Shown piece after piece: positions 10,507-31,235 of a stretch of 64,000 nucleotides of DNA. How positions within the stretch are numbered: position 1 is the first letter of the stretch; every line of letters begins with the position of its first letter. A program made the translations under genes and the position numbers. Origin of the DNA: Rhodospirillaceae bacterium (GTDB lineage: Bacteria > Pseudomonadota > Alphaproteobacteria > Rhodospirillales > Rhodospirillaceae); contig JAYRTJ010000006.1 of assembly GCA_041919675.1 (NCBI GenBank), positions 1,622 to 65,621 on the forward strand, written 5' to 3'. The notes beneath the pieces are model-generated. The model worked only from the letters and a program-made list of their open reading frames with translations. It was not told where the DNA came from and searched no databases.

Positions 10507-10727
10507 CAACTCCCCCCAACTTCCCACCCGGCGCCGGTTTTCCGGTCTTCGACCGCGCCCTTCTTGGAGGCCGGTCATACGCGTGCGTATATGGAAGATG
10601 CCGCCAGGAATGGTTGCCCCTACGGGCGCCCCGTCAGCCATTGGTTTGGGCGAGGAAACGCGATAAATCAGAGGCTTCTTGGGTGGGGACCCTGGTGATG
10701 GACCGGTGATGGGCGCGAGTTTTTAAG

Positions 10728-11270: not shown

Positions 11271-11309
11271 CCGCGGCATCTGCAAGATGAGTACCTTAAA
11301 AGGTGGATT

Positions 11310-12287: not shown

Positions 12288-12312
12288 TCCGGGGCGCGCA
12301 ACGCGAGGGGGA

Positions 12313-14927: not shown

Positions 14928-15116
14928 TCAATCGTTTCTCGCAAACCATCTAAACCAGCGAGCCGGAGTTTCTTTCGCGAGATCGTCCGCGACTCTTTCC
15001 CAATCGTCCGCCAACCGGAGAAAAAGCTCCTTTTCGAAGGAATGAGGCACGGTCTCTGCGTCCCGCCGCGCTTGTTCCGCCTGCCGGCGGCAAGCCTTGG
15101 CACGTGAATTCAGCAT
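14928..15116 (-). CDS. Small hypothetical protein (62 aa)
   Basis: ATG with GAGGG about 10 nt upstream. Helical sequence CRRQAEQARRDAE...ELFLRLADDWERVADDL resembles small orphan proteins common in alphaproteobacteria (from memory). Confidence 0.4.
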   Translation of the reverse strand: MLNSRAKACRRQAEQARRDAETVPHSFEKELFLRLADDWERVADDLAKETPARWFRWFARND

Positions 15117-15189: not shown

Positions 15190-16476
15190 TCAAAGGGCTT
15201 TATGAATCATCCCCGGATTCAGATCCTTCAAACTGGTCGCACCCACCTGCCGCAAGGCGGCGTTGAATTCCGCCTTCACGATCTGGATGACCCTGTCGAC
15301 ACCGGCTTCGCCGAACGACCCAAGGCCCCAGATATACGGCCGGCCGAAGCCGACCATCGTTGCGCCCATGGCCAGCGCCTTGACGATATCGAAGCCGCGG
15401 TAGAAGCCGCCGTCCACGAAGATCGGAACCCGACCCTTAACGGCCGGCGCGATGTCCGCCAGAGAAGCGATGGTCGAACCGCCGGTATCTTCGTTACGGC
15501 CGCCGTGATTCGAAATATGGATGCCATACCCGAGCTTGACGCATTGCAGCGCGTCCTGGACGTCCATAATGCCCTTGATGAAGATCTGCATCTTCGTGAT
15601 GTCGCGCAACCGCTTGATAAACTCCCACGTCAGCGAGTCGCGCGGCTCCTTGTCTTCCCACAGCGCGGCGGGCACCTCGGAGAATTGGGCCATGGCCGCG
15701 GGATCGCGGATCGTCTGCTTCGGATCGGTCTTACTCACGGTGTGGCAGGTCATGCAAAGACGCTTGTCCTCGCGCCGCTGACGTTCGAACTGCGACTGCT
15801 TGCGGTTTCCCGTGCCGTCCACCGTGACCAGCATCGCCTTGCAGCCGCTGCGCTCCGCGCGCTGGACGATCAGCTTCGTGATCTCCCAGTTCGACTGCTG
15901 ATACAGCTGGAACATGACCGGGCCCGCGCTGTCGCGAAGCTTGTTGGCCTGCTCGGTCGGAATCGTGGTGTTGGTCGCAAGTCCTTGCGCGATATTGTGC
16001 CGGCCGGCGGCGCGCGAGGTGCCGGTTTCGGCGTCCGGATGGTACGTCGTCAGGCGGCCGATCGGACACAGGAAGAACGGCATGGAATATTTATGGCCGA
16101 AGATTTCCCTGCTCGTATCCGCCTGCCGCACGTCGATGAGGCGGCGCGAGCGGATGACGAACTTATTTTGATCCTGCCTGTTCGCGCGGTAGGAACCCTC
16201 GCCGTCGGCGCCGGTCGACATGTAGCCCCAGTGCGCGGGCGGGACGTTCTTATGGGCAACCGCTTCCAGTTCGAAGATGTCAATCGCGTCTTGAGGCTTG
16301 TCGACGATGTAATTTGGATCGTACGGCTTCCAGATATAGGGGTCGTCGGGACGCGTCTGAAGTTCGAAGGCGGTGTTGGCGAGCGCCTCCCGGGCACTCA
16401 TCGCAAGCACAGGGCTTGCCGCCAGATATTGAAGAAATTTCCGACGGTTGTTCTTGACGTTCGCTGGATCGATCAT
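15190..16476 (-). CDS. FMN-dependent alpha-hydroxy-acid dehydrogenase/oxidase family protein with Tat signal
   Basis: NRRKFLQYLAASPVLAMSAREALA (twin-arginine motif); FMN_dh motifs (ISNHGGRNED, PIFVDGGFYRGFDIVKALAMGA). Start set to ATG 16476 after GGGGGG; the track uses TTG 16488. Confidence 0.85.
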   Translation of the reverse strand: MIDPANVKNNRRKFLQYLAASPVLAMSAREALANTAFELQTRPDDPYIWKPYDPNYIVDKPQDAIDIFELEAVAHKNVPPAHWGYMSTGADGEGSYRANRQDQNKFVIRSRRLIDVRQADTSREIFGHKYSMPFFLCPIGRLTTYHPDAETGTSRAAGRHNIAQGLATNTTIPTEQANKLRDSAGPVMFQLYQQSNWEITKLIVQRAERSGCKAMLVTVDGTGNRKQSQFERQRREDKRLCMTCHTVSKTDPKQTIRDPAAMAQFSEVPAALWEDKEPRDSLTWEFIKRLRDITKMQIFIKGIMDVQDALQCVKLGYGIHISNHGGRNEDTGGSTIASLADIAPAVKGRVPIFVDGGFYRGFDIVKALAMGATMVGFGRPYIWGLGSFGEAGVDRVIQIVKAEFNAALRQVGATSLKDLNPGMIHKAL

Positions 16477-16581
16477 GGTTCCCCCCAATAAACAAAAATT
16501 ACCGCTCTTCCGCGCGCTGCGGCGGGCAGCGCGCGGCCCCTCCTCAAAGTCGGCACACGCGTTTGGAAAAGCGCTCCTTGG

Positions 16582-17919
16582 CTAGACCATGATCTCGCTG
16601 ATGGCGTCGGACGTCGTGTTGCTTCCGCCGCCGAAGGTCTGGATTTCCATGCCGAGGAGGCGCATCGCGGTCAGAGACATCCGCGCCATCGGCGCGCCCT
16701 TCATGTCCAGGTGCAGGCCGGTCTTCAGCTTGCCGCCCGCGCGCCCGGCGGTGAACATGGGCATGTCCTCGAGGCCGTGCGTGCGTGCGTTCGCATCGCC
16801 CGTATCGGCCACGATCAGCATGTTGTCGAGAAGCGTGCCGTCGCCTTCCTTGATCTTCTCGAAAGCCTTCACGAAGGAGGCAAAGCCTTCCATCGAGCGG
16901 CGCACGAACCACGAGCACGTCGGCTGGTAACCGAGCTTGTCGTCGATCGGCTCCTCGTGGGTGCTGGTGTGATGCGGCTTTTCGTATCCCGGCTTGATGG
17001 TGTTCGAGGACATATCGGCGTAGGCCATGTTCACGACCCGCGTCTGATCGCACGCAATCGCCATCGCCAGCAGCTCGGACATCATCTCATTGCGCTGAAC
17101 GACGAACGGAGATTCGTTGTTCATCTTCAGTTCGGATTCATCGGGCGCCTTCGACGGATGGCAGGCGGCGATGGGTTCGGGTTTCGTCAACTGCTGAACG
17201 AACTGTTTCTCGAGGTGACGCAGGCCCGAGAAATACTGATCGAGGCGAGCCTTGTCTTCCGCGCCGACCCGTTTATTGAGCCAGTCGGCTTCTTCCATCA
17301 CCGCCGACAGGGCGCTCTTGCGCGACATGGCGCGCGGGCTCGGCTTGAAGTCCGCGGCGTTTGGATCGTTGAACTCGGGCCCAAACAACCGCGTGTAAAA
17401 CTCGAGCGGTGAATATTCGGCCGGATTCGGCGTATTCGGGTCTTCATACGAATAGGAGGTGCGCGCATTCCCGGTCGCGGTCGCGGTCAGAGTCTTGAAG
17501 CGCTGCGTGCGGCTGATCTGATTGGCGATCTTGATGTCCCAGGTCTCCGCCGTGAGGCTATTGCCGTTCGGCGGCGAGCCGGTGCGCGCGATGATCCAGC
17601 CGGTGACATGGCCCACGAGGCCCGCGCTGTCGCGGAAAGCCGTGAAGTTCGTGAGAAGATTGAGGTGCTGGCGAAGCGGAGCCAGAGATTCGATTTCCTC
17701 GGGGAATTCGAAATCCTTCCCCGTCGTCTTGGGAACGAACACCGAGCGGTTATGCCCCAGACCCCAGCTCCACAGGGCAAAGCGCGTCGGAATGGGCTTG
17801 CCGTCGGCAAGCGCCGTGCCGTTGCCGTTGAGGAAACAATTCAGAAGCGGCAGGCCGACCGTGACGGCGCCGCCGTTCAACATGCCGCGCAGGACGCGCC
17901 GGCGAGAGAAATCGTTCAT
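16582..17919 (-). CDS. DUF1552 family protein with Tat signal
   Basis: MNDFSRRRVLRGMLNGGAVTVGLPLL... plus a His-rich segment KPHHTSTHEEP. Typical partner of the upstream DUF1592-type gene. Start ATG 17919; GTG 17931 is possible. Confidence 0.8.
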   Translation of the reverse strand: MNDFSRRRVLRGMLNGGAVTVGLPLLNCFLNGNGTALADGKPIPTRFALWSWGLGHNRSVFVPKTTGKDFEFPEEIESLAPLRQHLNLLTNFTAFRDSAGLVGHVTGWIIARTGSPPNGNSLTAETWDIKIANQISRTQRFKTLTATATGNARTSYSYEDPNTPNPAEYSPLEFYTRLFGPEFNDPNAADFKPSPRAMSRKSALSAVMEEADWLNKRVGAEDKARLDQYFSGLRHLEKQFVQQLTKPEPIAACHPSKAPDESELKMNNESPFVVQRNEMMSELLAMAIACDQTRVVNMAYADMSSNTIKPGYEKPHHTSTHEEPIDDKLGYQPTCSWFVRRSMEGFASFVKAFEKIKEGDGTLLDNMLIVADTGDANARTHGLEDMPMFTAGRAGGKLKTGLHLDMKGAPMARMSLTAMRLLGMEIQTFGGGSNTTSDAISEIMV

Positions 17920-17939
17920 GACCTTTTCCACTCCTTAGA

Positions 17940-19697
17940 TCAGTGATTCGAAGCAACTTTATTCGGCGGCGAGGCCGCGGCCGATTTTTTCGGCGCCGGC
18001 GCATCGGGCACGCTGACGGCCGAGAACGCGGGATGCATGACAATCGAGCGCAACAGCGGCCGGAGGCGGTATTCGTCGTCCGCGAACCCTTTGTTCAATT
18101 CCGCCAGGGTCGCGTTTGACGACGCCGGGACCACCGACGCGGTCGCATAGCTGAAGGCGCGCCGCACCAGGCAAGACGGCACCAGCGGGCTGTCGTGAAG
18201 GACCTGCGCCAGGCCTTCAACCGTCGTGAAGGCTTTGCCGTCGAGGTTGCCGCTGGTATCGATCGCGGCGCCTTTTTCCGTTTCACGGTACCGGCCGGCC
18301 CCGTCGAACCTCTCCAGCGAGAGGCCGATCGGGTCGGTGATTTTGTGGCAGCCCGCGCAAACCGGGTTCGCGAGGTGCATGCCGACCCGTTCACGCGCGG
18401 TGCGAAGACGCGGATCCGGATTTTCGACAGCGGAGAAATCGACATTCGCCGGCGGCGCCGGCACTTTCTGGCAGAGCAGCAATTCGCGCAGCGCCTTGCC
18501 CCGCAACGTCGCGGAGCTGCGTGTCGCATGCGAGGCGCGCGCCAGGAAGCTGGCGTGCGTCAGGATGCCGGATCGCTCCGCCTCCGGGGGGAACTCGTAC
18601 GCATTCCAACCCGCCGACGTCTGGACGCCGTACAGGATGCCCAAGGGCGGCGAAAGGAATGTCTGACGTGTGGTGAAGAGATCCCTGTAGTCGCCGTTTT
18701 TCACCAGGAGCTGGTCGACCACCGTCCGCAGAGTCTGTTCACGCGCCTCCGCCGGCAAGCCGCCCAGGAAATACGGATAGACCGTCGCGTCCTTGCTGAG
18801 CGTTTCGAGATCCTCGAGACCGAACATGTCGTCGAAAAAGGCGCGGACGCCGGCTTCCAGGCGGACACTGGCCAGCATTTCGTCGACGATACGGCCCCGG
18901 GATTTCTCGCTGAAAAGATCGCCCTTTTTCGCCGCGGCCAGCAGCGCGGGGCCCGGCGCCGCGTTCCACAGGAAGAGACTCAGGCGCGAGGCCTGCGAAT
19001 AGGCGTCCAGGCGCATCTGCCCCGGGCGCTTGGGGTCGGGCTCTTCCGTTTCGGCGACCAGCAATACGCTGGGACTGAGGAGCACGCTCTCAAGCACGAC
19101 CTGGATGCCGGCATAGAAGTCGTTTTGCCGGTTTGCCGCCGCGCCGGCCTCTTCGACAAGCTTGGCCACATGCCCTTTGGGCGGAGGCACGAAATAGAGG
19201 TTCTCGACGACACGCGTCAGGAATTTGGACGCGCAGGCGTTATCGGCGGCGCCGGCGTCCGCCGGCTTGCAGGGGAACAGCGTGTCCCTGCGGCGCGCGT
19301 CGACGACCTGCGCGGACAATAGGCCTGCAATCTTCTGATAGGTTTCGAGCTGCGCGTCGCTCACCCCGGCGAGCGAGGTGCCGGCCATCAGCACGCCGTC
19401 CGTCCGCGCGACCGGTGCGAATTTCACATCCGTCGTGATGTCGGGACCGAAGAAATGCTGGATCGTATTGAGATATTGCTTCGTGGTCAGAAGCCGCAAG
19501 TGGCTCGGTATTCCGGCGGCGGCGCCGGATTCGGCCGGCGGCGCCTTACGATCCGCCGCGTGTGTCGCCACGGGAATCCCCAAGGCAATCCCCAAGGCAA
19601 TCCCGGCGAGCGCCGTCGCCGATACAAGGGTCTTCTGAAGAGCCGAACGGCCGCCCTTCCGCTGCGATGACCCCAACCGCATTAACATTCCAAACAA
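17940..19697 (-). CDS. DUF1592/DUF1588/DUF1585-type exported protein with CXXCH motif
   Basis: SRLSLFLWNAAPGPALL, SGILTHASFLARASH, NPVCAGCHKITDPIGLSLERFDGAGRYR. Signal-like segment LAGIALGIALGIPVATHA. Start uncertain (19688 or 19697). Confidence 0.8.
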   Translation of the reverse strand: MFGMLMRLGSSQRKGGRSALQKTLVSATALAGIALGIALGIPVATHAADRKAPPAESGAAAGIPSHLRLLTTKQYLNTIQHFFGPDITTDVKFAPVARTDGVLMAGTSLAGVSDAQLETYQKIAGLLSAQVVDARRRDTLFPCKPADAGAADNACASKFLTRVVENLYFVPPPKGHVAKLVEEAGAAANRQNDFYAGIQVVLESVLLSPSVLLVAETEEPDPKRPGQMRLDAYSQASRLSLFLWNAAPGPALLAAAKKGDLFSEKSRGRIVDEMLASVRLEAGVRAFFDDMFGLEDLETLSKDATVYPYFLGGLPAEAREQTLRTVVDQLLVKNGDYRDLFTTRQTFLSPPLGILYGVQTSAGWNAYEFPPEAERSGILTHASFLARASHATRSSATLRGKALRELLLCQKVPAPPANVDFSAVENPDPRLRTARERVGMHLANPVCAGCHKITDPIGLSLERFDGAGRYRETEKGAAIDTSGNLDGKAFTTVEGLAQVLHDSPLVPSCLVRRAFSYATASVVPASSNATLAELNKGFADDEYRLRPLLRSIVMHPAFSAVSVPDAPAPKKSAAASPPNKVASNH

Positions 19698-19766
19698 AGC
19701 GCCCTCCGCTCTAGTGAGCCGCTCTCCGCCTCGCGGACGCGGCCGAAGCCAATTTTCATCGGCGCG

Positions 19767-20969
19767 TTACCGCGCCCCGCTGGTGGAAACCTTGCCGTGG
19801 TCCGGTCCCGCGACCGTATCGGCCACCTGTTTTTCCGGATGCACCACGCGCGCACGAACGCCCGTGACCATGAGCGTGCCGGAAATGGCGGTGTTCGCTC
19901 CGGTCTCCGGATCGGGGTAAGCGTCGGCCAGCCGGCGCAGCGCCTTGTAGAAGGACCTCGAATCGAGCTTCCCGTAGCTGATCTGATGCGAACCGAAGCG
20001 GCGATTGACCCCGCGGTAATGGCTTTCGATATCGATATAGCCCGCGATGGCGCCTTCGATTTTCTCCGGCGACAGCTTCAACTCGAAGTGCGTGTCGTGC
20101 ATGAGCTCGGTCGCGGCCTCCTCGTGCTGATGCTGCGTCGGCCACACGAAATCGCCCGACTTCGTGGTCGTCAGCACGCCGGCGACGATCTTGCCTTTGA
20201 ACGTATGGATGAAATCCCGGCCGTAGACCGTGTCGATGCGCTGCGTGGTATCGACCTGGAAGTCACCCTTCGCGTCCCGCACCAGGGCGTCGAGGCCGCG
20301 GTATGTGGTGATCGTCACGTCGTCGTCGTTTTCAAGACTGTCGACGTCCGTCAACTCGATGATGGTGCGATTGTAGGTCCTGCTCTCGAAGTATTGCGTT
20401 TCGAAAAGAACCTGCGAGGACCCCAGGCGATAACTGGGGATGCAGCCGACCGCGCGGTAGAGCTGGTTGTCGATCCCGGGTTTTCCGTCGGGCGACGTGA
20501 AATCGCTGGGCTTTACCTTACCGTCGAGGTTGACGCCGTAGCTGATCTTTCCTTCGATTTCCTGGACGGGAAATTTGTCGGGGCCGGCCTTCGGCCACCA
20601 CACCTCGGCTTCGCGCGCAATCGTGGTGTCGGCCAGCTGATATTTTTTGCCTTCGATCTGCGGATACATCGCGGCGAACTGCTCGCGGGCGCCGAAGTCG
20701 TAAAGACCCTTCGGGCATTCGGCGTTGGTTTCCTTCCCCGCCGCATCCATCGCCTGGTAGATGCCGTAGGTGCGCGTGGTGAGCACGTAACCGATCGTGC
20801 GGCCGGATATTCCGGATTCATTCGCGGCAAAAGCGGGCGCGGCAAAAGCGAGCGCGGCGAAAGCGAGACCGCCGCCGGCGCAGATCGTCGCGGCAACGCC
20901 GGCGACCGCCATTTTGAGCGCCCCGCGCCGCGCGTTCGAGATTTCCTTTTTCACCTGCGTCTCCCTCAT
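19767..20969 (-). CDS. Exported hypothetical protein (no family recognised)
   Basis: Signal peptide ...AFAALAFAAPAFAANES. Lies 7 nt downstream of the preceding gene's stop. Coding-like composition. Start set to ATG 20969. Confidence 0.6.
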   Translation of the reverse strand: MRETQVKKEISNARRGALKMAVAGVAATICAGGGLAFAALAFAAPAFAANESGISGRTIGYVLTTRTYGIYQAMDAAGKETNAECPKGLYDFGAREQFAAMYPQIEGKKYQLADTTIAREAEVWWPKAGPDKFPVQEIEGKISYGVNLDGKVKPSDFTSPDGKPGIDNQLYRAVGCIPSYRLGSSQVLFETQYFESRTYNRTIIELTDVDSLENDDDVTITTYRGLDALVRDAKGDFQVDTTQRIDTVYGRDFIHTFKGKIVAGVLTTTKSGDFVWPTQHQHEEAATELMHDTHFELKLSPEKIEGAIAGYIDIESHYRGVNRRFGSHQISYGKLDSRSFYKALRRLADAYPDPETGANTAISGTLMVTGVRARVVHPEKQVADTVAGPDHGKVSTSGAR

Positions 20970-20976
20970 CTGCTGA

Positions 20977-22365
20977 CTAGCGGCCGCCGCGCCCGGCATA
21001 ACCGTCGCGCGTTTCAAAAATGTCGCGGTAGATGATCGCGGCATAGCCGTTGCGCCCGCCGTTGGCCTCGCCCCATCCGTTCGCATTGATGTCGGTGGGC
21101 TTACGGTCGCCATAACCCTTGTACCCGGCGAAGGTGTAGATGGGACGGCCGCGGAACGTGTAGACGTTCAGCGCTCCCGGGGCGCCCGCCGCAGCCTGCT
21201 TTCCGGTTTTCGGGTCGATCGGCATCGTCCCCCAAACCTGGTTTCCGGTCTTCGTCCCCGTGGGCGCGATCAGATAAGGGAAGGCCTTGATGCAGAGATC
21301 GGGATCGCCGCCGCCGCACATTGCAAAGCGATAAAGTTGCGGCGAGTCCGGCGTGTCGCAGCTCAGCTGATCGGGCGCATCGTCGGTACACACATACCGA
21401 TAGATCGTCATGCCGTTTGAATCACCGAGCCCCATGCCGACGATCGTCGGCTTCATCACGAAACCGGCGGGCGGTTTCGGCGTCATCTGGGTGTACACAT
21501 TCCGCCAGCCCGGGATATCGCTGCCGTTCTGCGACCCCAATTTCGTGTCCTCGATGTAGCGGTAGACCGGACGTCCGCGGAACGCCCACTGCAACACGCC
21601 CGGCGAACGCTCGAACGGCGTCCACTCGCCAACCCGCGTCGCGGAGGTTGCCGCAAGAATGGGTTCCCACTCGCTCAGGCACTCGTCTTTGCAATTGGAC
21701 TTGTTGCGGCCGTCGCGGTCGTACGTGTAGACGGACAAGCCGTTGCGCAACGTCACCAGGCGCCCCGCCATCGTCGTATGCACCGCGAATTGGCCGGGCA
21801 CATTCGATTCGGCGCCGAGCGGGTTGCGCACCGCGCCGCCTTCGCCGATGAAACCGAGGTCGGTCCCGCCCAGCACGTCGCCCGGGCGCTTGTCCAAAAC
21901 GGACGTGTACAGACCGTAGCCGTCATAGGCCCATTGCTTCGTGCCGTCGGGACGCGTGAGGACCGTCCACTTGCCTATCGGCTTTGCGTCGGCCGGCGCA
22001 TGCACCACGGGCCATAACGTCGTACAGGCGGGCCGGGTTTCGGCCTCGGGCATCAGCAGCCCGCCGGGATACGGGCTCTGCGTGCCGCTGCTTTCGCGCG
22101 CGGGTTCGCCGCCGCACGTGGGCTTGCCCCTGTCCTCGCCCGCGGTGCCGTTGCGCAAGGTCCGCTTCGGCCAGGTGTAGAGGGTCTTTCCTTGCCCGTC
22201 GGCATAGACCGGCCCCTCCAGTTCGTTGACGAGCACCTGGAAACCGGGCGGCATCGGCACGCGGGCAAAATCTTCTTTCGGCTCCGCCGCTTGGAGGGTC
22301 GACAGCCCGGCCATCGCCGTGAAACCGGCGATCGAGAGGAAGAGAATATTCAGGCGAAGTTGCAT
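20977..22365 (-). CDS. Exported protein with about six 'secreted repeat of unknown function' units (COG4315 / Lipoprotein_15-like)
   Basis: Signal MQLRLNILFLSIAGFTAMAGLSTLQA. Recurrent units: GPVYADGQGKTLYTW, KQWAYDGYGLYTS, LVTLRNGLSVYTYDRD, LQWAFRGRPVYRY, NGMTIYRYV, LNVYTFRGRPIYTF. Start trimmed to ATG 22365. Confidence 0.7.
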   Translation of the reverse strand: MQLRLNILFLSIAGFTAMAGLSTLQAAEPKEDFARVPMPPGFQVLVNELEGPVYADGQGKTLYTWPKRTLRNGTAGEDRGKPTCGGEPARESSGTQSPYPGGLLMPEAETRPACTTLWPVVHAPADAKPIGKWTVLTRPDGTKQWAYDGYGLYTSVLDKRPGDVLGGTDLGFIGEGGAVRNPLGAESNVPGQFAVHTTMAGRLVTLRNGLSVYTYDRDGRNKSNCKDECLSEWEPILAATSATRVGEWTPFERSPGVLQWAFRGRPVYRYIEDTKLGSQNGSDIPGWRNVYTQMTPKPPAGFVMKPTIVGMGLGDSNGMTIYRYVCTDDAPDQLSCDTPDSPQLYRFAMCGGGDPDLCIKAFPYLIAPTGTKTGNQVWGTMPIDPKTGKQAAAGAPGALNVYTFRGRPIYTFAGYKGYGDRKPTDINANGWGEANGGRNGYAAIIYRDIFETRDGYAGRGGR

Positions 22366-22555
22366 CGTCAGGTGTCTCTCTCGTGTTCGATCGAGGGTTA
22401 GGCGCCGCCGCCCCCTACTCCCAAGTACGCAGGTCCTCCGACGAACCCGACAGTTGGCTCCGGCGCCGGTTTCCCCTGCCGCACCGCACTTTTTGCAATG
22501 CAATAGAGCTCGTTTTTCGGGATTGGCCCGGCCGCCGGGCCCGTCCTCCGCCGCG

Positions 22556-23299
22556 CTATTTCTTCAACGGGATGAGGCCCGCATCCTTATAGGCTTGAGC
22601 GGCGCCCGCCGACGCGAGCACGTCGATCACCTTCGCGGCATCCTGCGCGCGGCGACCGGTTTTCACCGCCGCCGCCGTCACCACGATCCGCAGTTGATGC
22701 TCGTCGGGCAGCGGCACGATGTTCGTCAGGCCCGCGAGACGAAGCTCGCTGATTTGCTGACCGACGGAGGCGAGCTTGCCCTCGATGATCCGCGTGCCCA
22801 TGAGCCCCGCGCCGGTCTGGCTCTTCGCCTTCATCGCTTCGGTGAGGCCGAGCTTCTCAATGACGCCCGCGATGTGGCGGCCGCTCTGCGCGGTCGAATA
22901 GCCGAAGGACGGCGTTTCCGTCAGGAACCTGGCGAGGTCTTGCGAGGACGCGAGTTTAGGCGGCTTCGCATCACGCGCCACGGCGATGCCCACCGTGGAG
23001 ACCGCCACGTCGTGCTGCCCGTCCACACGCGCACGCATGGCTTCGGGGGCGAGCGAGTTCTTGGAGGTGACCACGAGATCGCCCGCGTCGCCCTTTGTCA
23101 GCCGTTCGACAATGACGTCGGTGGTCGCGAATTCGAGCGCGATCGCGACGCCCGCTTGCGCCTCGATGACCGGCGTCAGGGCCGTGACCGCGGCTTGCGC
23201 ATAAGCCGGGACCAAAACACGCAACGGCGCATCGGCGGCAAATGCCGGGTTGACGGCCAGCAGGAGGACGACGGCGCCGACGAATTTCGCGAATGTCAT
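22556..23299 (-). CDS. Periplasmic substrate-binding protein (ModA/PBP2-like), orphan
   Basis: Signal MTFAKFVGAVVLLLAVNPAFA. Two-lobe binding-protein-like sequence. No permease or ATPase gene nearby. ATG 23299 follows GAGGA. Confidence 0.65.
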   Translation of the reverse strand: MTFAKFVGAVVLLLAVNPAFAADAPLRVLVPAYAQAAVTALTPVIEAQAGVAIALEFATTDVIVERLTKGDAGDLVVTSKNSLAPEAMRARVDGQHDVAVSTVGIAVARDAKPPKLASSQDLARFLTETPSFGYSTAQSGRHIAGVIEKLGLTEAMKAKSQTGAGLMGTRIIEGKLASVGQQISELRLAGLTNIVPLPDEHQLRIVVTAAAVKTGRRAQDAAKVIDVLASAGAAQAYKDAGLIPLKK

Positions 23300-23391
23300 G
23301 GGCACGTCCTCATCGACAACTTGGAAAGATAGACACGGATTTCAGCGAGACCCGGGCCGCGACATTTGCGCCGCGGCCCGGCCCCTTACGT

Positions 23392-24474
23392 CTACTTCTG
23401 CAAAATCAGCTTCTGAACGCGCCAGTTGGACGTTTCGGCAACGTAGATCAGGTACTCGGACGGACAGGCGAGCTGATGGCCGCCGGAGAACGAACCGAGT
23501 TGGCGGCCCGAGCGCCCGATGACGCCGAGCACTTTGCCGTCCGTCGTGAGCTTGAAGATGCGCCCCGGCCAGGTCGACTCTCCGAGGAACAGGACTTTGT
23601 CGTTGTCCGGCGGGATACACAGCGAGTTGGGCGCGCCGACGCCCTGGTTGATGGCCTCGCCCTTCGGCGTATTGCCGTTGACGGACCGGCTGGTCGGATC
23701 GGGCGGCACCGTGACAGAGAATTTCCGCAGGAATTTCCCGTCCACGTCGAAAACCTGAACGCGCTGGTTTCCGCGATCGCCGACATAAACGTTGTCGTTC
23801 TTATCGATGGCAATGGCGTGCGGCGTGCGGAATTGACCGTCGCCGGTGCCGTGGTCGCCCCACATTTTCACGAAGTCGCCGTTCTTGTCGAACTTGGCCA
23901 CGCGCGCGTTGACGTAACCGTCGGTGATGTAGGAGTTGCCTTTGGAATCCCAAGCGATGTCCGTCGGCAAGCGGAAGTTCCCCTCGACCGCCGGCAGATG
24001 TTCGCCCGGCTTCGGCTTGGGACCGCCGCCGCCCTCGACTTCCGCCACCCCTTCCTGCCTGCGGCCGTACACCGTCATGACGCGGCCCGCCGGACTGAAC
24101 TGGACGATCATGTTCGAACCCTTGTCGATCGTCCAGATGTTGTCGGCCTTGTCGATGCGCACGCTGTGCGCGGCCGCGAAACCATAAAGGCCCTTGCCGA
24201 TCTCGCGGATGAATTTGCCGCTCGCGTCGAACTCATACAGTTGAGCCGCCGCCTGCCCGAAAACGGGCCCCGCGATTTCAGGCGTCGAGCGCGTAAAGAC
24301 GAAAACATTGCCTTTCGAGTTGGTCGCGACGCCAGCCACTTCACCGAAGTTCTGGCCGTTGGGCAGATCCGGAAAATTCGGAACCGACGTGAATTTGATT
24401 TGAGGCACGCTTTGTTGCGCCAGCGCCGGGCCGGCCAGGAACGCCAGAAGAAGCGCCGCGAGATGTTTTTTCAC
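23392..24474 (-). CDS. NHL-repeat six-bladed propeller protein (peptidyl-alpha-hydroxyglycine alpha-amidating lyase-like)
   Basis: Signal (M)KKHLAALLLAFLAGPALAQQ. NHL repeats: YITDGYVNARVAKFDKNGDFVKMWG, VYVGDRGNQRVQVFDVDGKFLRKF. GTG start preceded by GGAGGA. Confidence 0.8.
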   Translation of the reverse strand: MKKHLAALLLAFLAGPALAQQSVPQIKFTSVPNFPDLPNGQNFGEVAGVATNSKGNVFVFTRSTPEIAGPVFGQAAAQLYEFDASGKFIREIGKGLYGFAAAHSVRIDKADNIWTIDKGSNMIVQFSPAGRVMTVYGRRQEGVAEVEGGGGPKPKPGEHLPAVEGNFRLPTDIAWDSKGNSYITDGYVNARVAKFDKNGDFVKMWGDHGTGDGQFRTPHAIAIDKNDNVYVGDRGNQRVQVFDVDGKFLRKFSVTVPPDPTSRSVNGNTPKGEAINQGVGAPNSLCIPPDNDKVLFLGESTWPGRIFKLTTDGKVLGVIGRSGRQLGSFSGGHQLACPSEYLIYVAETSNWRVQKLILQK

Positions 24475-24557
24475 TTAAGTCCTCCCCGATGGAAAACGAT
24501 GGACGGATCTCACGCCCGGCAGGCCATGGCCGCCGGACGTGAGAGTCTCTCTGCGTC

Positions 24558-27500
24558 TTAGTAGGTAAAGCGCAGGCCGGCGCGGAACACGGTCCCCATG
24601 ATGTCGTAGATACCGGCCGCTCCCGTCGCCAAGTTGATGTAATTGGCGACGGTCGGGATTTGCGCGGGGTCGCGGTTGAAGATGTTCTTCACGGTGAAGT
24701 ACGCCGTCGAACGCGCGGGCCCCAGATCGAACGCATAGGAGAAGTTGGTGTCGAGGTAGAAGGCGCCGGGCAAGCGGTTGTTGTTCACCGTCAGGTTGGC
24801 CGCCGTCGACGTCGGGCAACCCGTCGTGCACTCGATATACTCGGCGTTGAGAAGCCCCGAGCTGAGGGCGCGGCCGGTCACGGTGACCGTGATCGGATCG
24901 AGGTTATAGGTTGCCGAGGCGTTCAATCTCCAATTCGGCGGAGACCCGCCGCTGTTCACGCCGACCTGATTGGTGGGCGGTGAAAGCTTATTGTCCTGGT
25001 AGTTGCGCAGATAGAAGGTCGCGTTGCCGTGCAGCGTGACGCTGCCGTCGAAGTCGGAAAACACGTCCGCAAGCTCGAAGCGATAGCTCGATTCGACGTC
25101 GACGCCCCTGAGGTCCTGCTCCGCGATATTGAAGTTCTGCCGTCTCACTTCGTTGATCACGCCGTTGATGCGCGTGATGTTGGGGCAGAACTCGGGCCGC
25201 TGGCCGTTGACGCAGTAGTCAATGATGTTCTGGGAGGTGACGGTGCCGATGCCGCCCTTCAGTTTCACGTTCCAATAGTCGACGGACGCGCTGAAGCCTT
25301 CGAGGAAGCTCGGCTGCAACACCACGCCGACGCCCAGCGTGTCGGCCTTTTCCGGCTCCAGGTTGGCATTTCCCGACGCGAACTGCCGGACCGTCGGCGT
25401 GGAGTTCGTAACGGGATCCCGAAGCGTTCCCAGCGAGAAGGCCGAGGGCTGGAACAGTTCCTGGATGTTCGGCGCGCGGATGTCGCGAGAGCGCGTCACG
25501 CGAAGCCGGATATCGGGAATCGGCGCGAACGTCGTTCCCAGCTTCCACGTGGTCACATAGCCGGCCAAGCTATAGTCCGTCGCACGGACGGCGGCGCTGA
25601 CGTCCCAACTGTCGGCAAAGGAGGCGTCATTGACGATCGGGATAACGGTTTCGATCGCGCCTTCGGTCACGGACTGCTTGCCGTCGAGCACCGGCAGGTT
25701 GGCGACGTTGTGGCCGCTCACGACCGACGTCGCGTCGGGGGTGTTGAGCACGTCTTCGATGCGGTGTTCCGCGCTGAGCGCCAAGGACACGGGGCCGGCC
25801 GGAAGAGAGAAAGGCTCGCCCGAAACCGAGGCGGAAAAGACGGCCTGTTGGACCTTGTTCCAGCTTTGAGAATCGATGCCGGTCATATAGGCGCGGCCGC
25901 CGGAGTTTTCATTATTGACGCCGATCCCCATGGGATTCCACGGCGAGCACGGATGGCTCGGGTCAGTCAGCTTGATGCGGCAAACGATGGCGCCCGTCGT
26001 CGGGTGGTACACCGCGTCCGTCGCGAGACGGAAGTTCTCGAGCGTAAACGTGTTGTAGAAATGCAGCAGCGGACGGCTGACCCCGTAGGACGCATATGCG
26101 TTCCAGTTCCACTCCGAACTGAACGCATCGAATTTGCCGTCGAACCCCAAGGAGTTCTGGTTCGTGATGCGCAGATTGTCGGCATAGTGGTCGCCCATGT
26201 CGTAGTTCCAGCTGCCGACCTGGATCGTCGTGACGTTGGCGGCGAGCATGGCCGCGCGCACCGTCGCCGGAAGATACGCGTTATCGATCCTGACGGCCGG
26301 CCCTGTCGCGTTGAGAGTCTGCGGCGGGCTGACGACACCTTGCTCGCGTGAACTGGTCCACGACGACTGAACGTGGAAATTCACATTGTCGGTCAGGTCG
26401 TACGCCACGCGGGCGAAGACGTTCTGGCGATGGGCCTCGAACGCCATCTGGTAGTGCTGCCGGTAGTCCGTGGCCTGCCAATCGCCGCCTTGCGTGTTCG
26501 ACGCCGTGGTGATCGGCCCGTAGTTGAACTGATAGGGAACGCCGCCCTGCCCGAAAGCGACCCCCTTCAGCGGACCGGAGACGACCATCCCGCCCCACGT
26601 CCCGCCGGTGAATCCGACATTGTCGAGCACGAGCTGGTTTGGCTGCCCGTTGGTCGCGGTATAGGCGGGATTCAACATCATCACGCGGCCGATGCGGTTC
26701 CACTTGCGCCCGCCGTCCCCGTCGGTCCCGCCGTTGTACGACTCTTCGCCGGACAGCAGAACGTGGCCGCGGCCGTTGGCGAACGGGAACCCGGCGGATA
26801 ATTTGACCGAGAAGTTCTTGGCGTCGCCGTAAACGGTCATACCGGCGCTGACATCGCCTTTGATGCCGGTGAAATTCTTATCGAGAACGAAGTTCACGAC
26901 GCCCGCGACGGCGTCCGAACCGTACACGGCCGACGCGCCGCCGGTGACGATGTCGACACGCGTGACCAGCTGTTGCGGATAGGAGCTGATATCCACGTTC
27001 TGGCCAGACGCCGACGATCCGACGGTCCGTTGGCCGTCGAGGAGAATCAGCGTTCTTTCCGCACCGAGACTGCGCAGGTTCGCGTTGCTTTGACCGCTGG
27101 TGGACGACGACAGGCCGGCGGACGTCGTTGCGCTTACGCCGGCCCCGGAGAAGGCGGGCATTTCCGCAATGAGCACCGCGAGATTGGGATCGGGCCTGTT
27201 CGCCAATTGCTCGGCCCCGATGACGGCGAGAGGCGTCGGCGCCTCATACCCCTCGCGCACGATGCGCGATCCCGTCACGACCACCTCCTCGAGAGGCCCC
27301 ACCGGCTGCACGGACGCCGCCTGGCTGGACCCGGACGATTGCGGAGGCACCGCGGCGCCCTCGGCCGCGACCTTCGTGAAAGTTGAAACTTCAGAGGTTC
27401 TCTGCGGTCCCGCGACGACATAGACGCCTTTGCCGTTCGTCCTGACCGTCAGGCCCGTCCCGGCGACGAGCGCATTCAACGCTTCTTCCGCGGTCAAGCG

Positions 27501-27782
27501 TCCGGCGACACCCGCGGTGCGCAGGTTGGCGACTTCCTTCTCGGAAAACGCGAGAGAGATCCCCGTTCTGCTCTCCACCTCGCGCAGCCCCGCGGTGAGT
27601 GTGGTTGCGCCGATTTGCATGTCATAGCGCTGGTTCGGTTCGGCGGCCCAGGACGTATTCCCGTAAATCGCCGGCGTGAGCGCCAGCGTGGACATCAAGA
27701 CCGTCCGCAAACACTTGCGCTTCAGTCCGCGGAATATTCCCCCCGCCGCCACAACGGACGTCGTCGTTTTCGAACGCAACAT
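24558..27782 (-). CDS. Large TonB-dependent transducer with N-terminal STN domain
   Basis: STN domain YDMQIGATTLTAGLREVESRTGISLAF...EEALNALVAGTGLTVR, plug (VVVTGSRI...), long barrel, terminal ...FRAGLRFTY. Start trimmed to ATG 27782 after GGGGGGAAG. Confidence 0.9.
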   Translation of the reverse strand: MLRSKTTTSVVAAGGIFRGLKRKCLRTVLMSTLALTPAIYGNTSWAAEPNQRYDMQIGATTLTAGLREVESRTGISLAFSEKEVANLRTAGVAGRLTAEEALNALVAGTGLTVRTNGKGVYVVAGPQRTSEVSTFTKVAAEGAAVPPQSSGSSQAASVQPVGPLEEVVVTGSRIVREGYEAPTPLAVIGAEQLANRPDPNLAVLIAEMPAFSGAGVSATTSAGLSSSTSGQSNANLRSLGAERTLILLDGQRTVGSSASGQNVDISSYPQQLVTRVDIVTGGASAVYGSDAVAGVVNFVLDKNFTGIKGDVSAGMTVYGDAKNFSVKLSAGFPFANGRGHVLLSGEESYNGGTDGDGGRKWNRIGRVMMLNPAYTATNGQPNQLVLDNVGFTGGTWGGMVVSGPLKGVAFGQGGVPYQFNYGPITTASNTQGGDWQATDYRQHYQMAFEAHRQNVFARVAYDLTDNVNFHVQSSWTSSREQGVVSPPQTLNATGPAVRIDNAYLPATVRAAMLAANVTTIQVGSWNYDMGDHYADNLRITNQNSLGFDGKFDAFSSEWNWNAYASYGVSRPLLHFYNTFTLENFRLATDAVYHPTTGAIVCRIKLTDPSHPCSPWNPMGIGVNNENSGGRAYMTGIDSQSWNKVQQAVFSASVSGEPFSLPAGPVSLALSAEHRIEDVLNTPDATSVVSGHNVANLPVLDGKQSVTEGAIETVIPIVNDASFADSWDVSAAVRATDYSLAGYVTTWKLGTTFAPIPDIRLRVTRSRDIRAPNIQELFQPSAFSLGTLRDPVTNSTPTVRQFASGNANLEPEKADTLGVGVVLQPSFLEGFSASVDYWNVKLKGGIGTVTSQNIIDYCVNGQRPEFCPNITRINGVINEVRRQNFNIAEQDLRGVDVESSYRFELADVFSDFDGSVTLHGNATFYLRNYQDNKLSPPTNQVGVNSGGSPPNWRLNASATYNLDPITVTVTGRALSSGLLNAEYIECTTGCPTSTAANLTVNNNRLPGAFYLDTNFSYAFDLGPARSTAYFTVKNIFNRDPAQIPTVANYINLATGAAGIYDIMGTVFRAGLRFTY

Positions 27783-28038
27783 AGCTTCCCCCCAAAGGAT
27801 GTTGTTCTCTCGCGATAGTTTGCGAGCCCACGAAAAAAAGTATCGGTTTGCCTCCCAGCAAAGCCCTATACGCAAGTGCCTTCGGCAACCCGACAGGCGC
27901 AGGTTCGAAAAAGATCACATGCATGTGCCGCACATTTAGATGCAGTGCGAAACGCGAAGGGCCTACCCAGTCGCGCTTTTATCTAGTTAAATCTTCCGCG
28001 CGTTCCGGCGCACCGCCGGCGGGGGAGAGCGTTCTAGC

Positions 28039-28587
28039 GTGGGGATGGATGATAGCAACGCATTAGGACCGCGGCTGCGCTTAGAAGAAGTCATCCTTCT
28101 ATATGAGCAGGAGTTGCGAAGGTTCTTGACTAAACACCTGCGGAACAGCGCGGATATCGACGACTGCCTTCAAGAGACTTTTCTTAAAATATGGACAAGC
28201 GCCCAGCGGCATGAGTTGCGGGACGATATCCGGGGGTATGTATTCACCGTGGCTTTGAATGTGATCCGGGACAAACGGCGCCGCGACCAGGCGAGACGCA
28301 GGGATTTACATACAGAGATGTCGGATTCCATCGAGAGCGTGCGTACTGTAGGGGTGGAGGACCAGCTTTACTGGACGGAAGCCGTGAGATTGATGGAATC
28401 GGAGCTGCAGGCCCTGCGGCCTTCGACACGAAACATCTTTTTGAAGTACCACTTGGAGCACAAGACCTACGCCGACATTGCAAACGAACTGGGGATCTCG
28501 GTTCGCACGGTCGAGCGGGAAATCGCGCGGGCAATGCAGCATATGACCGCAGTCTTGGGAAATTCACTTTTTGTAAACGATCGATGA
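28039..28587 (+). CDS. ECF (FecI-type) sigma factor
   Basis: DIDDCLQETFLKIW, YVFTVALNVIRDKRRR, STRNIFLKYHLEHKTYADIANELGISVRTVEREI. ATGA overlap with the next gene. Confidence 0.85.
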   Translation: MGMDDSNALGPRLRLEEVILLYEQELRRFLTKHLRNSADIDDCLQETFLKIWTSAQRHELRDDIRGYVFTVALNVIRDKRRRDQARRRDLHTEMSDSIESVRTVGVEDQLYWTEAVRLMESELQALRPSTRNIFLKYHLEHKTYADIANELGISVRTVEREIARAMQHMTAVLGNSLFVNDR

Positions 28588-29612
28588 GCATGACCGACGA
28601 TACTCCCTCCACGGCGCCAGAATGGGTCGCACGCATGAATGCGGGGCCATTGTCGCCGGAATTGCGCGCCGCTTTGGACGCGTGGCTGGCGAAGGACCCG
28701 CGGAATCAGGCCGACTTTACCTTGGCGCGCCTCACCTGGACCGTGGCCCAGAAGCTCAACACCAGCGAAGTCGCGCACAACGAGCTCCGTGCGTTGAACG
28801 CCGCCCCGGCCGTCCACGGTTGGGACTGGCGCCGCTTGATTGCGGCGACTTTCGGCGCGAGTCCGCGCAGATGGGCGCCGGCCTTCGCGGCCGTCCTGCT
28901 CATCGTCGCCGGAGCGGCTTGGCTGGCGAATCCGCCGCGGTCCCCGGACGGCATGGCCCTGCTCGACAACGGCCGCAGCGCATCGACGGTCGTGGGCGAG
29001 ATCTCGAACTATGTGCTTCCGGACGGCTCGAAGGTGACCATCAACGCGCAGTCGGGCGTCCGCGTGGCGTTCACGCGCGCGCAACGCAAAATCATCCTCG
29101 AAAGCGGCGAAGCGTTCTTCGAGGTCCAGCACGACGACACACCCTTTGTGGTGGTCGCGGGATTGCGCTCGGTCGTCGTCACCGGCACGAAGTTCGACGT
29201 AAAGCTGGATTCCTACCGGAGCGGCCTGCAGGTCGCCGTCGTCGAAGGTCATGTGAATGTCGGCGATCACGAAACCGAAGCGAAGGACGCCGCCAAATTG
29301 CAGGCGAACGACGTCTTCCGGTTCTTGGACAACGCTCCGCCCGAGCGCCTGGCCGTTGCCGCGAACCTGGTTTCGGCCTGGCAGACGCGCCGGTTATATT
29401 TCGAGGGCACAACCGTCGGCGACGTCTTGTTCTCGGTCAACCGCTTCGCGCGAAAGCCGCTGCGGCTGGGCGACCCGCAACTCGCCGAATTGCCGCTGAG
29501 CGGCAGCTTTTCCGCCGGCGACACGGATGCGGTGCTGTTTTCCCTGCACTCGCTGTACAGGATCGAAGCCAAAGACAGCGGCGACGCCTTGATCCTGGAC
29601 ACGGCGAAGTGA
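28584..29612 (+). CDS. FecR family anti-sigma/sensor protein
   Basis: EWVARMNAGPLSPELRAALDAWLAKDPRNQADF, one TM segment, and a FecR domain (GEAFFEVQHDDTPFVVVAGLRSVVVTGTKFDV). Confidence 0.85.
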   Translation: MSMTDDTPSTAPEWVARMNAGPLSPELRAALDAWLAKDPRNQADFTLARLTWTVAQKLNTSEVAHNELRALNAAPAVHGWDWRRLIAATFGASPRRWAPAFAAVLLIVAGAAWLANPPRSPDGMALLDNGRSASTVVGEISNYVLPDGSKVTINAQSGVRVAFTRAQRKIILESGEAFFEVQHDDTPFVVVAGLRSVVVTGTKFDVKLDSYRSGLQVAVVEGHVNVGDHETEAKDAAKLQANDVFRFLDNAPPERLAVAANLVSAWQTRRLYFEGTTVGDVLFSVNRFARKPLRLGDPQLAELPLSGSFSAGDTDAVLFSLHSLYRIEAKDSGDALILDTAK

Positions 29613-29630: not shown

Positions 29631-31235
29631 CTATCCGGCGGCGCGCGTGAAGATCAGGCTGTAGACGCGGGGACGAATGAAGCGGATTCCCCGCGCCTTC
29701 CCGGCGGAATCGCGCACGATCGCGATCAAGCCGTCCGCGTCGCGGTAAACGTCGCGGGAAAGAGGCGTGAGCGCCGCCGCCGCGCTGGGACGGTTGACCG
29801 GCGCGAGGATAAGGCGCCCCTCCTTTACCGACAGAACCAGTTCACCGTTCGCTTCCGCACTCGTGTAGCGGCCGGCGAGCGCCTCGAGCTCGGGCAACCG
29901 CGGCGCATAGGGATCGACCTTGCGGAAGGTCGTGACTTCGCCGTCGGCGGTGCGGCTTTCCACGGCGCCGTCCTTGAAGATCATTTCCGCGCCGGCGTTG
30001 CGATAGCGGCGCGCGTCCAAACGGACGAGGTCCACCTCACGCTTGCCTTCGGCGAATTTGAGCGCCCCGCCGCCGGCGACCACCCGCGCGCTGCGGCCCG
30101 TACGCTCGTCGATATACAGCCCCTGCGCCTGCGATAATTCCGCGTGAGGGGCCGCGCCCGCCGCAGGCACAGGCGCCGCGGCCGGCAGGAGCGGCGCGGC
30201 CGCCTCGCGACCCACCCGCGCGGCATTGATCTCCTCTCCATTGCAGAGCACCGCGACGCTCACCCCTTGAGACGGATAACGGGCGAGCCACGCGCGGTAA
30301 GCCGCCGTGCCGCCGCCGTGAGAGATCTCGGCCACGCCGTTGTAGACGCCGTGCTGGAGCCCGCGCGCATAGGCGATCTTGCGCCCGCTCGTGAGCACCG
30401 CCCGCTCTTCCAAATGCCCGGTGACGAATTCTCCGAGCTTTCGCGCCGTCAGCGCCGCGTTCCACTTGAGAAGGTCGCCTGCCGTTGTCAGCAGGCCGCC
30501 ATGCCCATATGTGTCTTCGAACGGCATTTCCTGCGTATAACCTTCGGCGGTCTTCTCGCGATAGGCGACGGCGCGATCGGGCACGACGCGGCGGAAATCG
30601 TCGCGCCATGTCGTTTTGCTCATCCCCAGCGGGATGAACATGCGCTCGCGCGTGAAGGCGGGAAGCGATTTGCCGCTCACGCGCTCGACGATGAAGGCGG
30701 CGAGGTTGAAGCCCGTATTGTTGTAGGAATACGCTTCGCCGGGTTTAAAGTTCAGCGCACGCTGACGGCCGGCGATTTCAAGGACTTCCTGGTTGGTGCG
30801 AAATACATAGGAGCGCGGCCAACCGGCGAGGCCGGAGACTTCGCCCCAGTCGCGCAGGCCGTTCGTGTGACTGAGAAGATGGTTGATCGTAATGGGCGTG
30901 CCGTAGTCCGGCAGCTCGGGGATATACTTGCGAATATCGTCGGTGAGCGCGATTTTGCCCTCCTCGACCAGCATCAGGATCGCCGCCGCGGTAAATTGCT
31001 TCGCGATCGATCCCGCTTCCATGACGGTCTCGGGCGTAATGGGCACGGCATGCTCGAGGTCGGCCAAGCCGTAAGCCCCAAAAACCGGCGGTTGCCCTTG
31101 GCGCGCGACGCCGACCGCGCAGCCGGGCGCCTGCGGATCCTCTCCCTTGAAAGCCATCGCGGCGTCGGCCGCGTGCGCGCGCAGCGGCGCAATGGCGACG
31201 GTGCATAGCAATACCCAGCGCGGTACATAGCGCAT
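29631..31235 (-). CDS. Serine hydrolase (beta-lactamase/transpeptidase-like family), exported
   Basis: Signal ...APLRAHA, SxxK (GSIAKQF) and YxN (YSYNNTGF). Extended C-terminal domain. Confidence 0.85.
   Translation of the reverse strand: MRYVPRWVLLCTVAIAPLRAHAADAAMAFKGEDPQAPGCAVGVARQGQPPVFGAYGLADLEHAVPITPETVMEAGSIAKQFTAAAILMLVEEGKIALTDDIRKYIPELPDYGTPITINHLLSHTNGLRDWGEVSGLAGWPRSYVFRTNQEVLEIAGRQRALNFKPGEAYSYNNTGFNLAAFIVERVSGKSLPAFTRERMFIPLGMSKTTWRDDFRRVVPDRAVAYREKTAEGYTQEMPFEDTYGHGGLLTTAGDLLKWNAALTARKLGEFVTGHLEERAVLTSGRKIAYARGLQHGVYNGVAEISHGGGTAAYRAWLARYPSQGVSVAVLCNGEEINAARVGREAAAPLLPAAAPVPAAGAAPHAELSQAQGLYIDERTGRSARVVAGGGALKFAEGKREVDLVRLDARRYRNAGAEMIFKDGAVESRTADGEVTTFRKVDPYAPRLPELEALAGRYTSAEANGELVLSVKEGRLILAPVNRPSAAAALTPLSRDVYRDADGLIAIVRDSAGKARGIRFIRPRVYSLIFTRAAG

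Follow-up and report, generated by a model that had tools for sequence, protein, structure and literature searches.

The window analysed here comprises 64,000 nucleotides of a Rhodospirillaceae bacterium (assembly GCA_041919675.1, contig JAYRTJ010000006.1, positions 1,622 to 65,621), and the subject of this report is the locus at 15190-29612, which pairs a putative cell-surface-signalling switch with a run of genes for exported proteins. According to the open reading frame (ORF) list and its translations, eight consecutive minus-strand genes run from 27782 down to 15190, and two plus-strand genes at 28039-29612 encode an extracytoplasmic function (ECF) sigma factor and its FecR-type partner (Table 1). 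An earlier reading made from the letters alone, hereafter the sequence-only reading, had described short gaps and tightly linked regulators; the coordinates bear this out, with intergenic distances of 83, 92, 190, 7, 84, 20 and 105 nucleotides in transcription order from the receptor and an overlap of the sigma stop with the anti-sigma start in the tetranucleotide ATGA. The named domains that it had assigned across the ten genes were all recovered by Pfam. Its statement that every product carries a Sec or twin-arginine (Tat) signal agrees with a crude hydrophobicity check, which finds a signal-like hydrophobic segment at the N-terminus of each product of the run, and with twin-arginine motifs in the FMN_dh and DUF1552 proteins that are kept in 115/120 and 40/42 relatives, respectively. 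No permease, ABC ATPase or cytoplasmic enzyme is encoded within 15190-29612, as judged from the ORF list and Pfam, so this claim also holds for the locus itself. One description stood only in part: the COG4315-type protein does show six repeat units by eye, but only three Lipoprotein_15 stretches exceed the Pfam thresholds. Scans for sigma-70 promoters and for terminators returned no more than is expected from shuffled sequence and are uninformative; they gave no convincing terminator inside the operon, and one weak terminator-like site.

Table 1. Features of the locus and of the adjacent second signalling unit, in window positions.
Feature	Positions	Strand	Basis
FMN_dh, Tat signal, CxxCH in loop-4 insertion (accessory)	15190-16476	minus	Pfam 1.3e-96
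DUF1552/HXXSHH, Tat signal (core)	16582-17919	minus	Pfam
PSD/PSCyt3, DUF1587-1595-1592-1588-1585, one CAGCH haem-c motif (core)	17940-19682	minus	Pfam
UNK, exported protein of ~380 residues, unnamed family (core)	19767-20969	minus	no Pfam/NCBIfam match
Lipoprotein_15 (COG4315) repeat protein, Cys-rich (core)	20977-22365	minus	Pfam
SBP_bac_11, orphan periplasmic solute-binding protein (variable slot)	22556-23299	minus	Pfam
NHL propeller, exported, six-bladed, PAL-like/lactonase-like (accessory)	23392-24474	minus	Pfam NHL, DUF5128, SGL
TonB-dependent transducer, STN+Plug+barrel, 1074 residues, first operon gene	24558-27782	minus	Pfam
Divergent control region between receptor and sigma genes; candidate promoters	27783-28038		
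ECF sigma, FecI-like, divergent from receptor gene	28039-28587	plus	Pfam Sigma70_r2 and r4_2
FecR-type anti-sigma/signal transducer	28584-29612	plus	Pfam DUF4880+FecR
PF00144 (beta-lactamase-family) serine hydrolase, exported	29631-31235	minus	Pfam
ECF sigma of second unit	10710-11267	plus	
FecR of second unit	11310-12287	plus	
STN receptor of second unit, 813 residues	12313-14754	plus	

A scan of one genome per species returned at least 522 sites that encode a member of the UNK family. The neighbourhood counts given below refer to the best 79 loci, whose ORFs were searched with the ten window proteins and which all derive from uncultured metagenome-assembled genomes (MAGs) labelled Rhodospirillaceae, 'Marinimicrobia', Steroidobacteraceae, Woeseiaceae, Povalibacter or Gammaproteobacteria. 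Several MAGs with many cassettes (among records L009-L022) are labelled 'Candidatus Marinimicrobia', yet have proteins 57-65% identical to those of Rhodospirillaceae-labelled MAGs, which casts doubt on the taxonomy given in these records.

The arrangement at the locus is not due to chance: its complete order recurs in two other genomes, and its core in dozens of loci. The whole, including the second signalling unit on its left, is kept in a Rhodospirillaceae-labelled MAG (L001/L008, on one contig; UNK 84-90% identical, according to two measures) and in a 124-kb metagenome contig of the Joint Genome Institute (JGI; L091; FMN dehydrogenase 93% identical). A check for synteny in related genomes, which the sequence-only reading had called for, thus recovers the full order twice, but in one narrow clade only. 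The eight-gene set as a functional unit did not survive the comparison, since three components of the locus are rare among the 79 loci: the solute-binding protein occurs in one (L008; it is also present in L091), the ECF/FecR pair in two (one of them unrelated to the cassette) and FMN_dh in five, and the NHL propeller reaches 13. What is conserved is a cassette of five genes, which encode a TonB-dependent receptor of about 1000 residues, PSD, Tat-exported DUF1552, Lipoprotein_15 and UNK. Where the 10-kb flanks are complete (37 loci), Lipoprotein_15 is found in 31, PSD together with DUF1552 in 23 and a receptor of the same subfamily (500-1800 bits) in 21; over all 79, such receptors flank the cassette in 31. 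DUF1552 directly follows PSD in 37 of 38 cases, and the gene directly before UNK encodes Lipoprotein_15 for 73 of 116 UNK genes and another UNK for 23. Most often the order is receptor-PSD-DUF1552-Lipoprotein_15-UNK; two five-gene units of this kind stand in tandem in L023, and a single MAG has at least 12 UNK, 12 Lipoprotein_15, eight PSD/DUF1552 and six receptor genes, counts that are lower bounds taken from the best 80 matches.

Gene fusions link the same families. Nine of ten longer proteins that are matched by the UNK profile and were scanned proved to be fusions: seven join UNK to Lipoprotein_15 repeats, in both orders, one joins it to a complete PSD with its CAGCH motif, and one to a tannase/feruloyl-esterase domain. 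An origin as gene-calling artefacts was rejected, as the protein sequences read through unbroken and in six of the seven fusions with Lipoprotein_15 the order is opposite to that usual for the separate genes; judged from the protein sequences, we consider the fusions real. Natural fusions are classical Rosetta-stone evidence, and on their account UNK would work with Lipoprotein_15 and PSD; the tannase fusion suggests that UNK can serve an esterase as well. Synteny, tandem duplication and natural fusions together show, on genomic grounds, that the four exported core proteins belong together. A rival explanation would be that a regulated receptor happens to lie beside independent exported proteins in a gene-dense, paralogue-rich region. 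The 190-nucleotide gap and the weak terminator-like site would suit this idea, as would UNK arrays that occur on their own, FMN dehydrogenase genes that stand alone elsewhere, and an accessory content that differs between loci. It is nevertheless very improbable in view of the common strand with short gaps throughout, an order kept in three genomes, the tandem duplication of entire five-gene cassettes, the near-obligate adjacency of PSD and DUF1552, and the joining of core families in single proteins.

The sequence-only reading had further recognised a cell-surface-signalling unit in the ECF sigma, FecR and STN trio, and all sequence hallmarks of such a unit are present (Pfam domains, adjacency and the ATGA overlap). 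In the long receptor ORF the STN domain (Pfam 7.9e-09) occupies residues 106-154 and is followed by Plug and barrel. Alignment reveals it as a discrete extension of about 95 residues, which the receptors of the window, L001 and L012 possess and those of L013, L014 and L023 cleanly lack. The window, L001 and L091 each have the extension together with the sigma/anti-sigma pair; neither is found in L013, a close orthologue (receptor 1818 bits, with NHL, Lipoprotein_15, UNK, PSD and DUF1552 also present) that is collinear apart from the STN segment. In L013 the receptor gene is directly preceded, on its own strand, by an orthologue of the PF00144 hydrolase (905 bits), and no sigma/anti-sigma genes separate the two; in the window the pair sits exactly between the receptor and hydrolase genes. 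Because both elements are missing in L013, and the pair lies at that very junction here, STN and regulators seem to have been gained or lost together, which is the pattern expected for one signalling unit dedicated to this receptor; the switch would then be a coupled add-on. The comparison also suggests that the pair was inserted between the hydrolase and receptor genes, and, given that the L013 hydrolase adjoins the receptor without intervening regulators, the PF00144 gene, which lies outside the coordinates of the sequence-only reading, was probably the first gene of the operon originally. This hydrolase is missing from L001. The L012 receptor bears STN, but the end of its contig, within a short divergent ORF 400 bp upstream, makes the case uninformative on the sigma/anti-sigma pair. 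As a side observation, the short divergent ORF at the contig end of MAG RH-23may17-595 (L092, 1-83, minus strand; MGKRGFGAEQIVSKLRQIEVLMAQGKT) presumably resembles the N-terminal part of an IS3-type transposase, in which case a mobile element beside the receptor gene would be where the assembly broke.

The sigma gene is conserved in L001, and so are the ATG start and the ribosome-binding region of the receptor gene. An exact-match look-up found a copy of the window FecR on one 1.5-kb Logan contig only. By analogy with FecIRA, we infer that the pair controls the divergent receptor operon. The system that we regard as the most probable, with moderate confidence, is a TonB-dependent uptake-and-periplasmic-processing operon built on the conserved five-gene cassette and placed under a cell-surface-signalling switch, that is, a proteobacterial analogue of a polysaccharide-utilisation locus (PUL).

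FecIRA, which serves ferric citrate in E. coli and siderophores in Pseudomonas, shares with the window an STN receptor, a DUF4880+FecR anti-sigma and an ECF sigma with regions 2 and 4, all encoded by adjacent genes. Unlike in FecIRA, the sigma/anti-sigma genes of the window are divergent from the receptor gene rather than upstream of it in one direction, the receptor is about 300 residues longer than the FecA type, and seven exported proteins take the place of an ABC importer. Orthology does not extend to the individual components, which score 74.8 vs 185 (FecI), 77 vs 385 (FecR) and 40 vs 1100 bits (FecA) against the NCBIfam cut-offs. The likeness raises the question of whether the locus acquires metal: a chelate of iron (or of molybdenum, tungsten or copper) would be imported in FecIRA fashion, PSD and DUF1552 would release or reduce the metal, and Lipoprotein_15 and the solute-binding protein would carry it. 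The signalling architecture is indeed best known from iron uptake, the solute-binding protein is weakly ModA-like, the Lipoprotein_15 protein is rich in cysteine, and TonB, a PepSY_TM protein and two other receptors are encoded in the neighbourhood. Set against this, the receptor falls far below every NCBIfam cut-off for siderophore, haem and B12 receptors and shares no match at E<=1e-3 with the other two receptors of the window. The control region holds no Fur-box-like site (best match 11/19), whereas one accompanies the siderophore-type receptor gene at 3601-5916, a useful contrast within the window as far as the iron regulator of the host is Fur-like. The solute-binding protein is confined to this clade, no ABC importer is encoded at the locus, and the presence of at least 6-12 paralogous cassettes per genome, with tannase, metallo-beta-lactamase, SDR, a sugar-type permease of the major facilitator superfamily (MFS) and dienelactone hydrolase, fits organic substrates better. 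Metal or metallophore acquisition is therefore judged quite unlikely.

One position of the locus varies between relatives. The slot between receptor/NHL and core is filled by the solute-binding protein in the window, by an MFS permease in L012/L092, by a tannase/feruloyl esterase in L013, by PEBP in L014, by SDR and a metallo-beta-lactamase-fold protein in L018, and by metallo-beta-lactamase-fold proteins in L029 and L061. The solute-binding protein of the window is an orphan with no permease or ATPase gene nearby, as the sequence-only reading had stated; its likeness to ModA is weak, and the ModA equivalog score is far from reached (20.7 vs 288 bits in NCBIfam). The MFS permease at the equivalent position of L012/L092 contradicts the proposal that the absence of an inner-membrane transporter characterises the system: the trait is specific to the locus. 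Downstream genes of L092 encode a dienelactone hydrolase, a second MFS protein, an acyl-CoA dehydrogenase, a CoA-transferase and an IclR regulator, and would suggest that esters or lactones are hydrolysed and an organic acid is catabolised further, not that the system never supplies the cytoplasm. The sequence-only reading had hinted, as a speculation, at alpha-hydroxy-acid or glyoxylate chemistry from a lyase resembling PAL (peptidyl-alpha-hydroxyglycine alpha-amidating lyase) alongside the FMN dehydrogenase. The NHL protein does match PAL (3fvz; E=4.9e-18, residues 44-251, four blades) in a sequence search of the PDB, and the His/Tyr/His/Arg residues of the PAL motifs seem to be present, a lead and not a result. 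However, the FMN dehydrogenase subfamily is also encoded by solitary genes elsewhere, and what accompanies the cassette in relatives (tannase, PF00144, metallo-beta-lactamase fold, dienelactone hydrolase) fits ester or lactone hydrolysis as much as glyoxylate chemistry.

These accessory genes also bear on whether the imported compound feeds the cell with carbon or with electrons only. The substrate might be oxidised in the periplasm for energy alone, incompletely and without carbon import, with electrons passing from the FMN/haem dehydrogenase and PSD to the respiratory chain; this is what the absence of an inner-membrane transporter would mean if taken literally. A conserved CxxCH in two proteins, the export of all products, a locus without permease and cytochrome c genes in 11 related loci would all be in keeping with such electron harvesting. 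It is nonetheless unlikely, given that a related locus (UNK 58% identical) has an MFS permease within the operon and CoA-transferase and acyl-CoA dehydrogenase genes downstream, that the solute-binding protein of the window implies onward transport, and that the FMN dehydrogenase is present in only five of 79 loci. The number of paralogues, the types of accessory gene, the MFS permease of the related locus and the fusions place uptake with periplasmic processing above all three of the other explanations.

For the uptake-and-processing operon, a sequence of events can be proposed. By analogy with the established FecIRA mechanism, binding of a ligand at the receptor would be relayed through the STN domain to FecR, which would release the ECF sigma factor and so switch on the divergent receptor operon. 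The imported compound would then meet the four exported core proteins, with Lipoprotein_15 and UNK as presumed binding or targeting parts and the haem protein PSD and DUF1552 as a candidate catalytic or redox pair. Accessories specific to the locus would act next, namely the lyase- or lactonase-like NHL propeller, the esterase-type PF00144 hydrolase and the periplasmic FMN dehydrogenase, whose CxxCH may hold a covalent haem as electron donor to the pool of cytochromes in the periplasm. The orphan binding protein could finally hand the product to a transporter encoded elsewhere. Because of the accessory genes in paralogous loci, the substrate is suggested to be ester- or lactone-containing, possibly aromatic organic matter, not an iron chelate.

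The closest analogue is found in Bacteroides, where polysaccharide-utilisation loci are reportedly governed by ECF-sigma/anti-sigma trans-envelope signalling through SusC-like transporters (Martens et al. 2009, PMC2709373). The resemblance lies in a nutrient-type TonB-dependent transporter with a signalling extension that switches on a locus for exported proteins, and in the many paralogous loci per genome, each with a constant core and variable enzymes. The window locus differs in that it has no SusD partner, glycoside hydrolases or lipoprotein signals, and its constant core consists of PSD/DUF1552/Lipoprotein_15/UNK rather than SusC/SusD; moreover, the hosts are Proteobacteria, and most cassettes have no sigma/anti-sigma pair.

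Among the accessory proteins, the FMN dehydrogenase stands out. It matches PF01070 with 324 bits (cut-off 24.9) over profile positions 1-349 of 350 and contains the active-site stretch SNHGGR; in the PDB it comes nearest to lactate oxidase, glycolate oxidase and flavocytochrome b2 (160-245 bits), and its alignment with lactate oxidase spans the HG(G/A)R region. It shares a full-length FMN_dh barrel with these enzymes, but has a twin-arginine signal and a CxxCH in loop 4, and no cytochrome b5 domain. All NCBIfam equivalog cut-offs, including those for LldD, lactate oxidase and MftD, lie above its scores. The CxxCH (RLCMTCH, residues ~237-241) is situated in an extended loop after strand 4, and its position is invariant in all 120 best homologues, down to 44% identity, while the middle residues vary freely (CATCH, CSGCH, CGTCH, CTACH, CIECH and others). 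The enzyme and these homologues seem to form a subfamily of their own, made up of periplasmic alpha-hydroxy-acid dehydrogenases that may bear haem c, and no description of a Tat-exported CxxCH FMN_dh subfamily was found in the literature searched. A 62-residue ORF without signal peptide lies just downstream of the dehydrogenase gene (14928-15116, minus strand); it belongs to no known family, is predicted as a gene in L001 and L091 too, and shares 33 of its 62 residues with the L001 copy.

UNK belongs to a large family that counts at least 843 clusters at 90% identity, all of them nameless and free of Pfam domains; in a profile search of 1.84 billion representatives, at least 1107 clusters at the 50% level matched with E<=1e-3, 675 of them with E<=1e-10. 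A Pfam search of 30 members of the family at E<=1 produced only scattered single matches. The proteins have two invariant cysteines and conserved Asp-rich motifs, and the AlphaFold2 (AF2) model of UNK is fairly confident (pLDDT 78.8, pTM 0.76). In Foldseek it has no match in the PDB at E<=1e-3, the top hits being weak beta-barrel resemblances (PsbO, LbpB/TbpB; TM<=0.16) that are not interpreted. The two catalytic candidates are marked by conserved motifs of haem and metal type: CAGCH is present in 41 of 41 PSD relatives and HHxx[ST]H in 42 of 42 DUF1552 relatives. PDB sequence and profile searches yielded nothing usable for DUF1552 (its profile included), Lipoprotein_15, PSD or the solute-binding protein.

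PSCyt3/PSD and DUF1552 are familiar as 'Planctomycete-specific' pairs of Rhodopirellula and Verrucomicrobia (PMC5615132), with which the window shares the same families in the same order, the CxxCH and a Tat-type partner; unlike those pairs, it embeds them in a cassette with a TonB-dependent receptor, Lipoprotein_15 and UNK, and its hosts are Proteobacteria. The same paper, the only one found that discusses the pair, calls it function-unknown, and a CBM2-DUF1592 protein has been detected in a lignocellulose-degrading community. The literature searched held no functional studies of DUF1552/1592/1588/1501, of COG4315/PF03640, of periplasmic FMN/haem enzymes or of tannase together with TonB. The sequence-only reading had not recognised the gene combination as a described system, and no account of it was found in the literature searched; the association of the PSCyt3/DUF1552 pair with this receptor subfamily, Lipoprotein_15 and UNK appears to be undescribed there.

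It is important to point out several observations that count against an uptake-and-processing operon, or against parts of it. No experiments on any of the four core families were found in the literature searched, and the relatives are all MAGs with inconsistent taxonomic labels. Arrays of three or four UNK paralogues occur without PSD, DUF1552 or receptor (L006/L048 10001-14791, L031, L037, L049 and L077), and the UNK family therefore has a life outside the cassette. The AF2 model of DUF1552, built from a 30-sequence alignment, is poor (pLDDT 50), and although almost all of its top ~33 Foldseek matches belong to the alkaline-phosphatase superfamily, none is significant (E>=0.027, TM<=0.26); going by this model, DUF1552 may have an alkaline-phosphatase-superfamily fold, a weak lead. 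Distant members of the FMN_dh subfamily are stand-alone genes in other lineages, so that the link to the cassette may be loose; we know of no precedent for a covalent haem on a Tat-exported flavoprotein, and the CxxCH could serve another role. On the regulatory side, ECF/FecR genes lie beside the cassette only in this narrow clade, and control by the pair is inferred and not general; several blocks of the control region are conserved between the window and L001, but two sequences alone cannot define a promoter.

DUF1552/DUF1592-type pairs are among the most abundant function-unknown families in Planctomycetes, Verrucomicrobia and many Proteobacteria. In the locus and its relatives, this pair is connected with a specific subfamily of TonB-dependent importers, with two more exported families, one of them unnamed and with no structural relative, with accessory genes for ester hydrolases and, in this genome, with a dedicated sigma/anti-sigma switch, which makes the system experimentally tractable for both regulon and substrate. 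A bolder proposal, offered only tentatively, is that the cassette could be an undescribed modular machine for uptake and periplasmic processing, a Sus-like counterpart in Proteobacteria that has diversified, in uncultured lineages either Steroidobacter/Woeseia-like or labelled 'Rhodospirillaceae', into twelve or more copies per genome. The DUF1552/DUF1592 pairs and UNK would thereby gain a first functional context, in TonB-dependent import of complex, possibly polyphenolic-ester matter, and the FMN dehydrogenase associated with the cassette would be a new flavocytochrome c class. Should the cassette prove to be a general kit for processing in the periplasm, the annotation of the carbon-degrading potential of these abundant soil, freshwater and sediment bacteria would change. 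The CxxCH-bearing, Tat-exported FMN dehydrogenase subfamily represents a separate and easily testable enzymological lead.

The surroundings of the locus contain a second cell-surface-signalling unit at 10710-14754 on the plus strand, in textbook fecIRA order and convergent on the FMN dehydrogenase gene; it is kept beside the cluster in L001 and L091. Further left lie genes for glycosyltransferases, TonB, a response regulator and a siderophore-type receptor (3601-5916, minus strand) beside a PepSY_TM protein. The best Fur-box-like sequence of the whole window, GATAATGCGAATCAGTCTT (14/19), is found together with a 13/19 site in 5917-6188, between the receptor/PepSY_TM pair and the TonB gene, and this interval is probably an iron-regulated divergent promoter. 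To the right of the PF00144 hydrolase gene follows a large TPR-like protein, encoded by an ORF of ~1160 residues (31519-35013, minus strand) with faint TPR/AMIN-like matches only, and then MotB-like and flagellar genes. In L001, a homologue of this large ORF directly abuts FecR.

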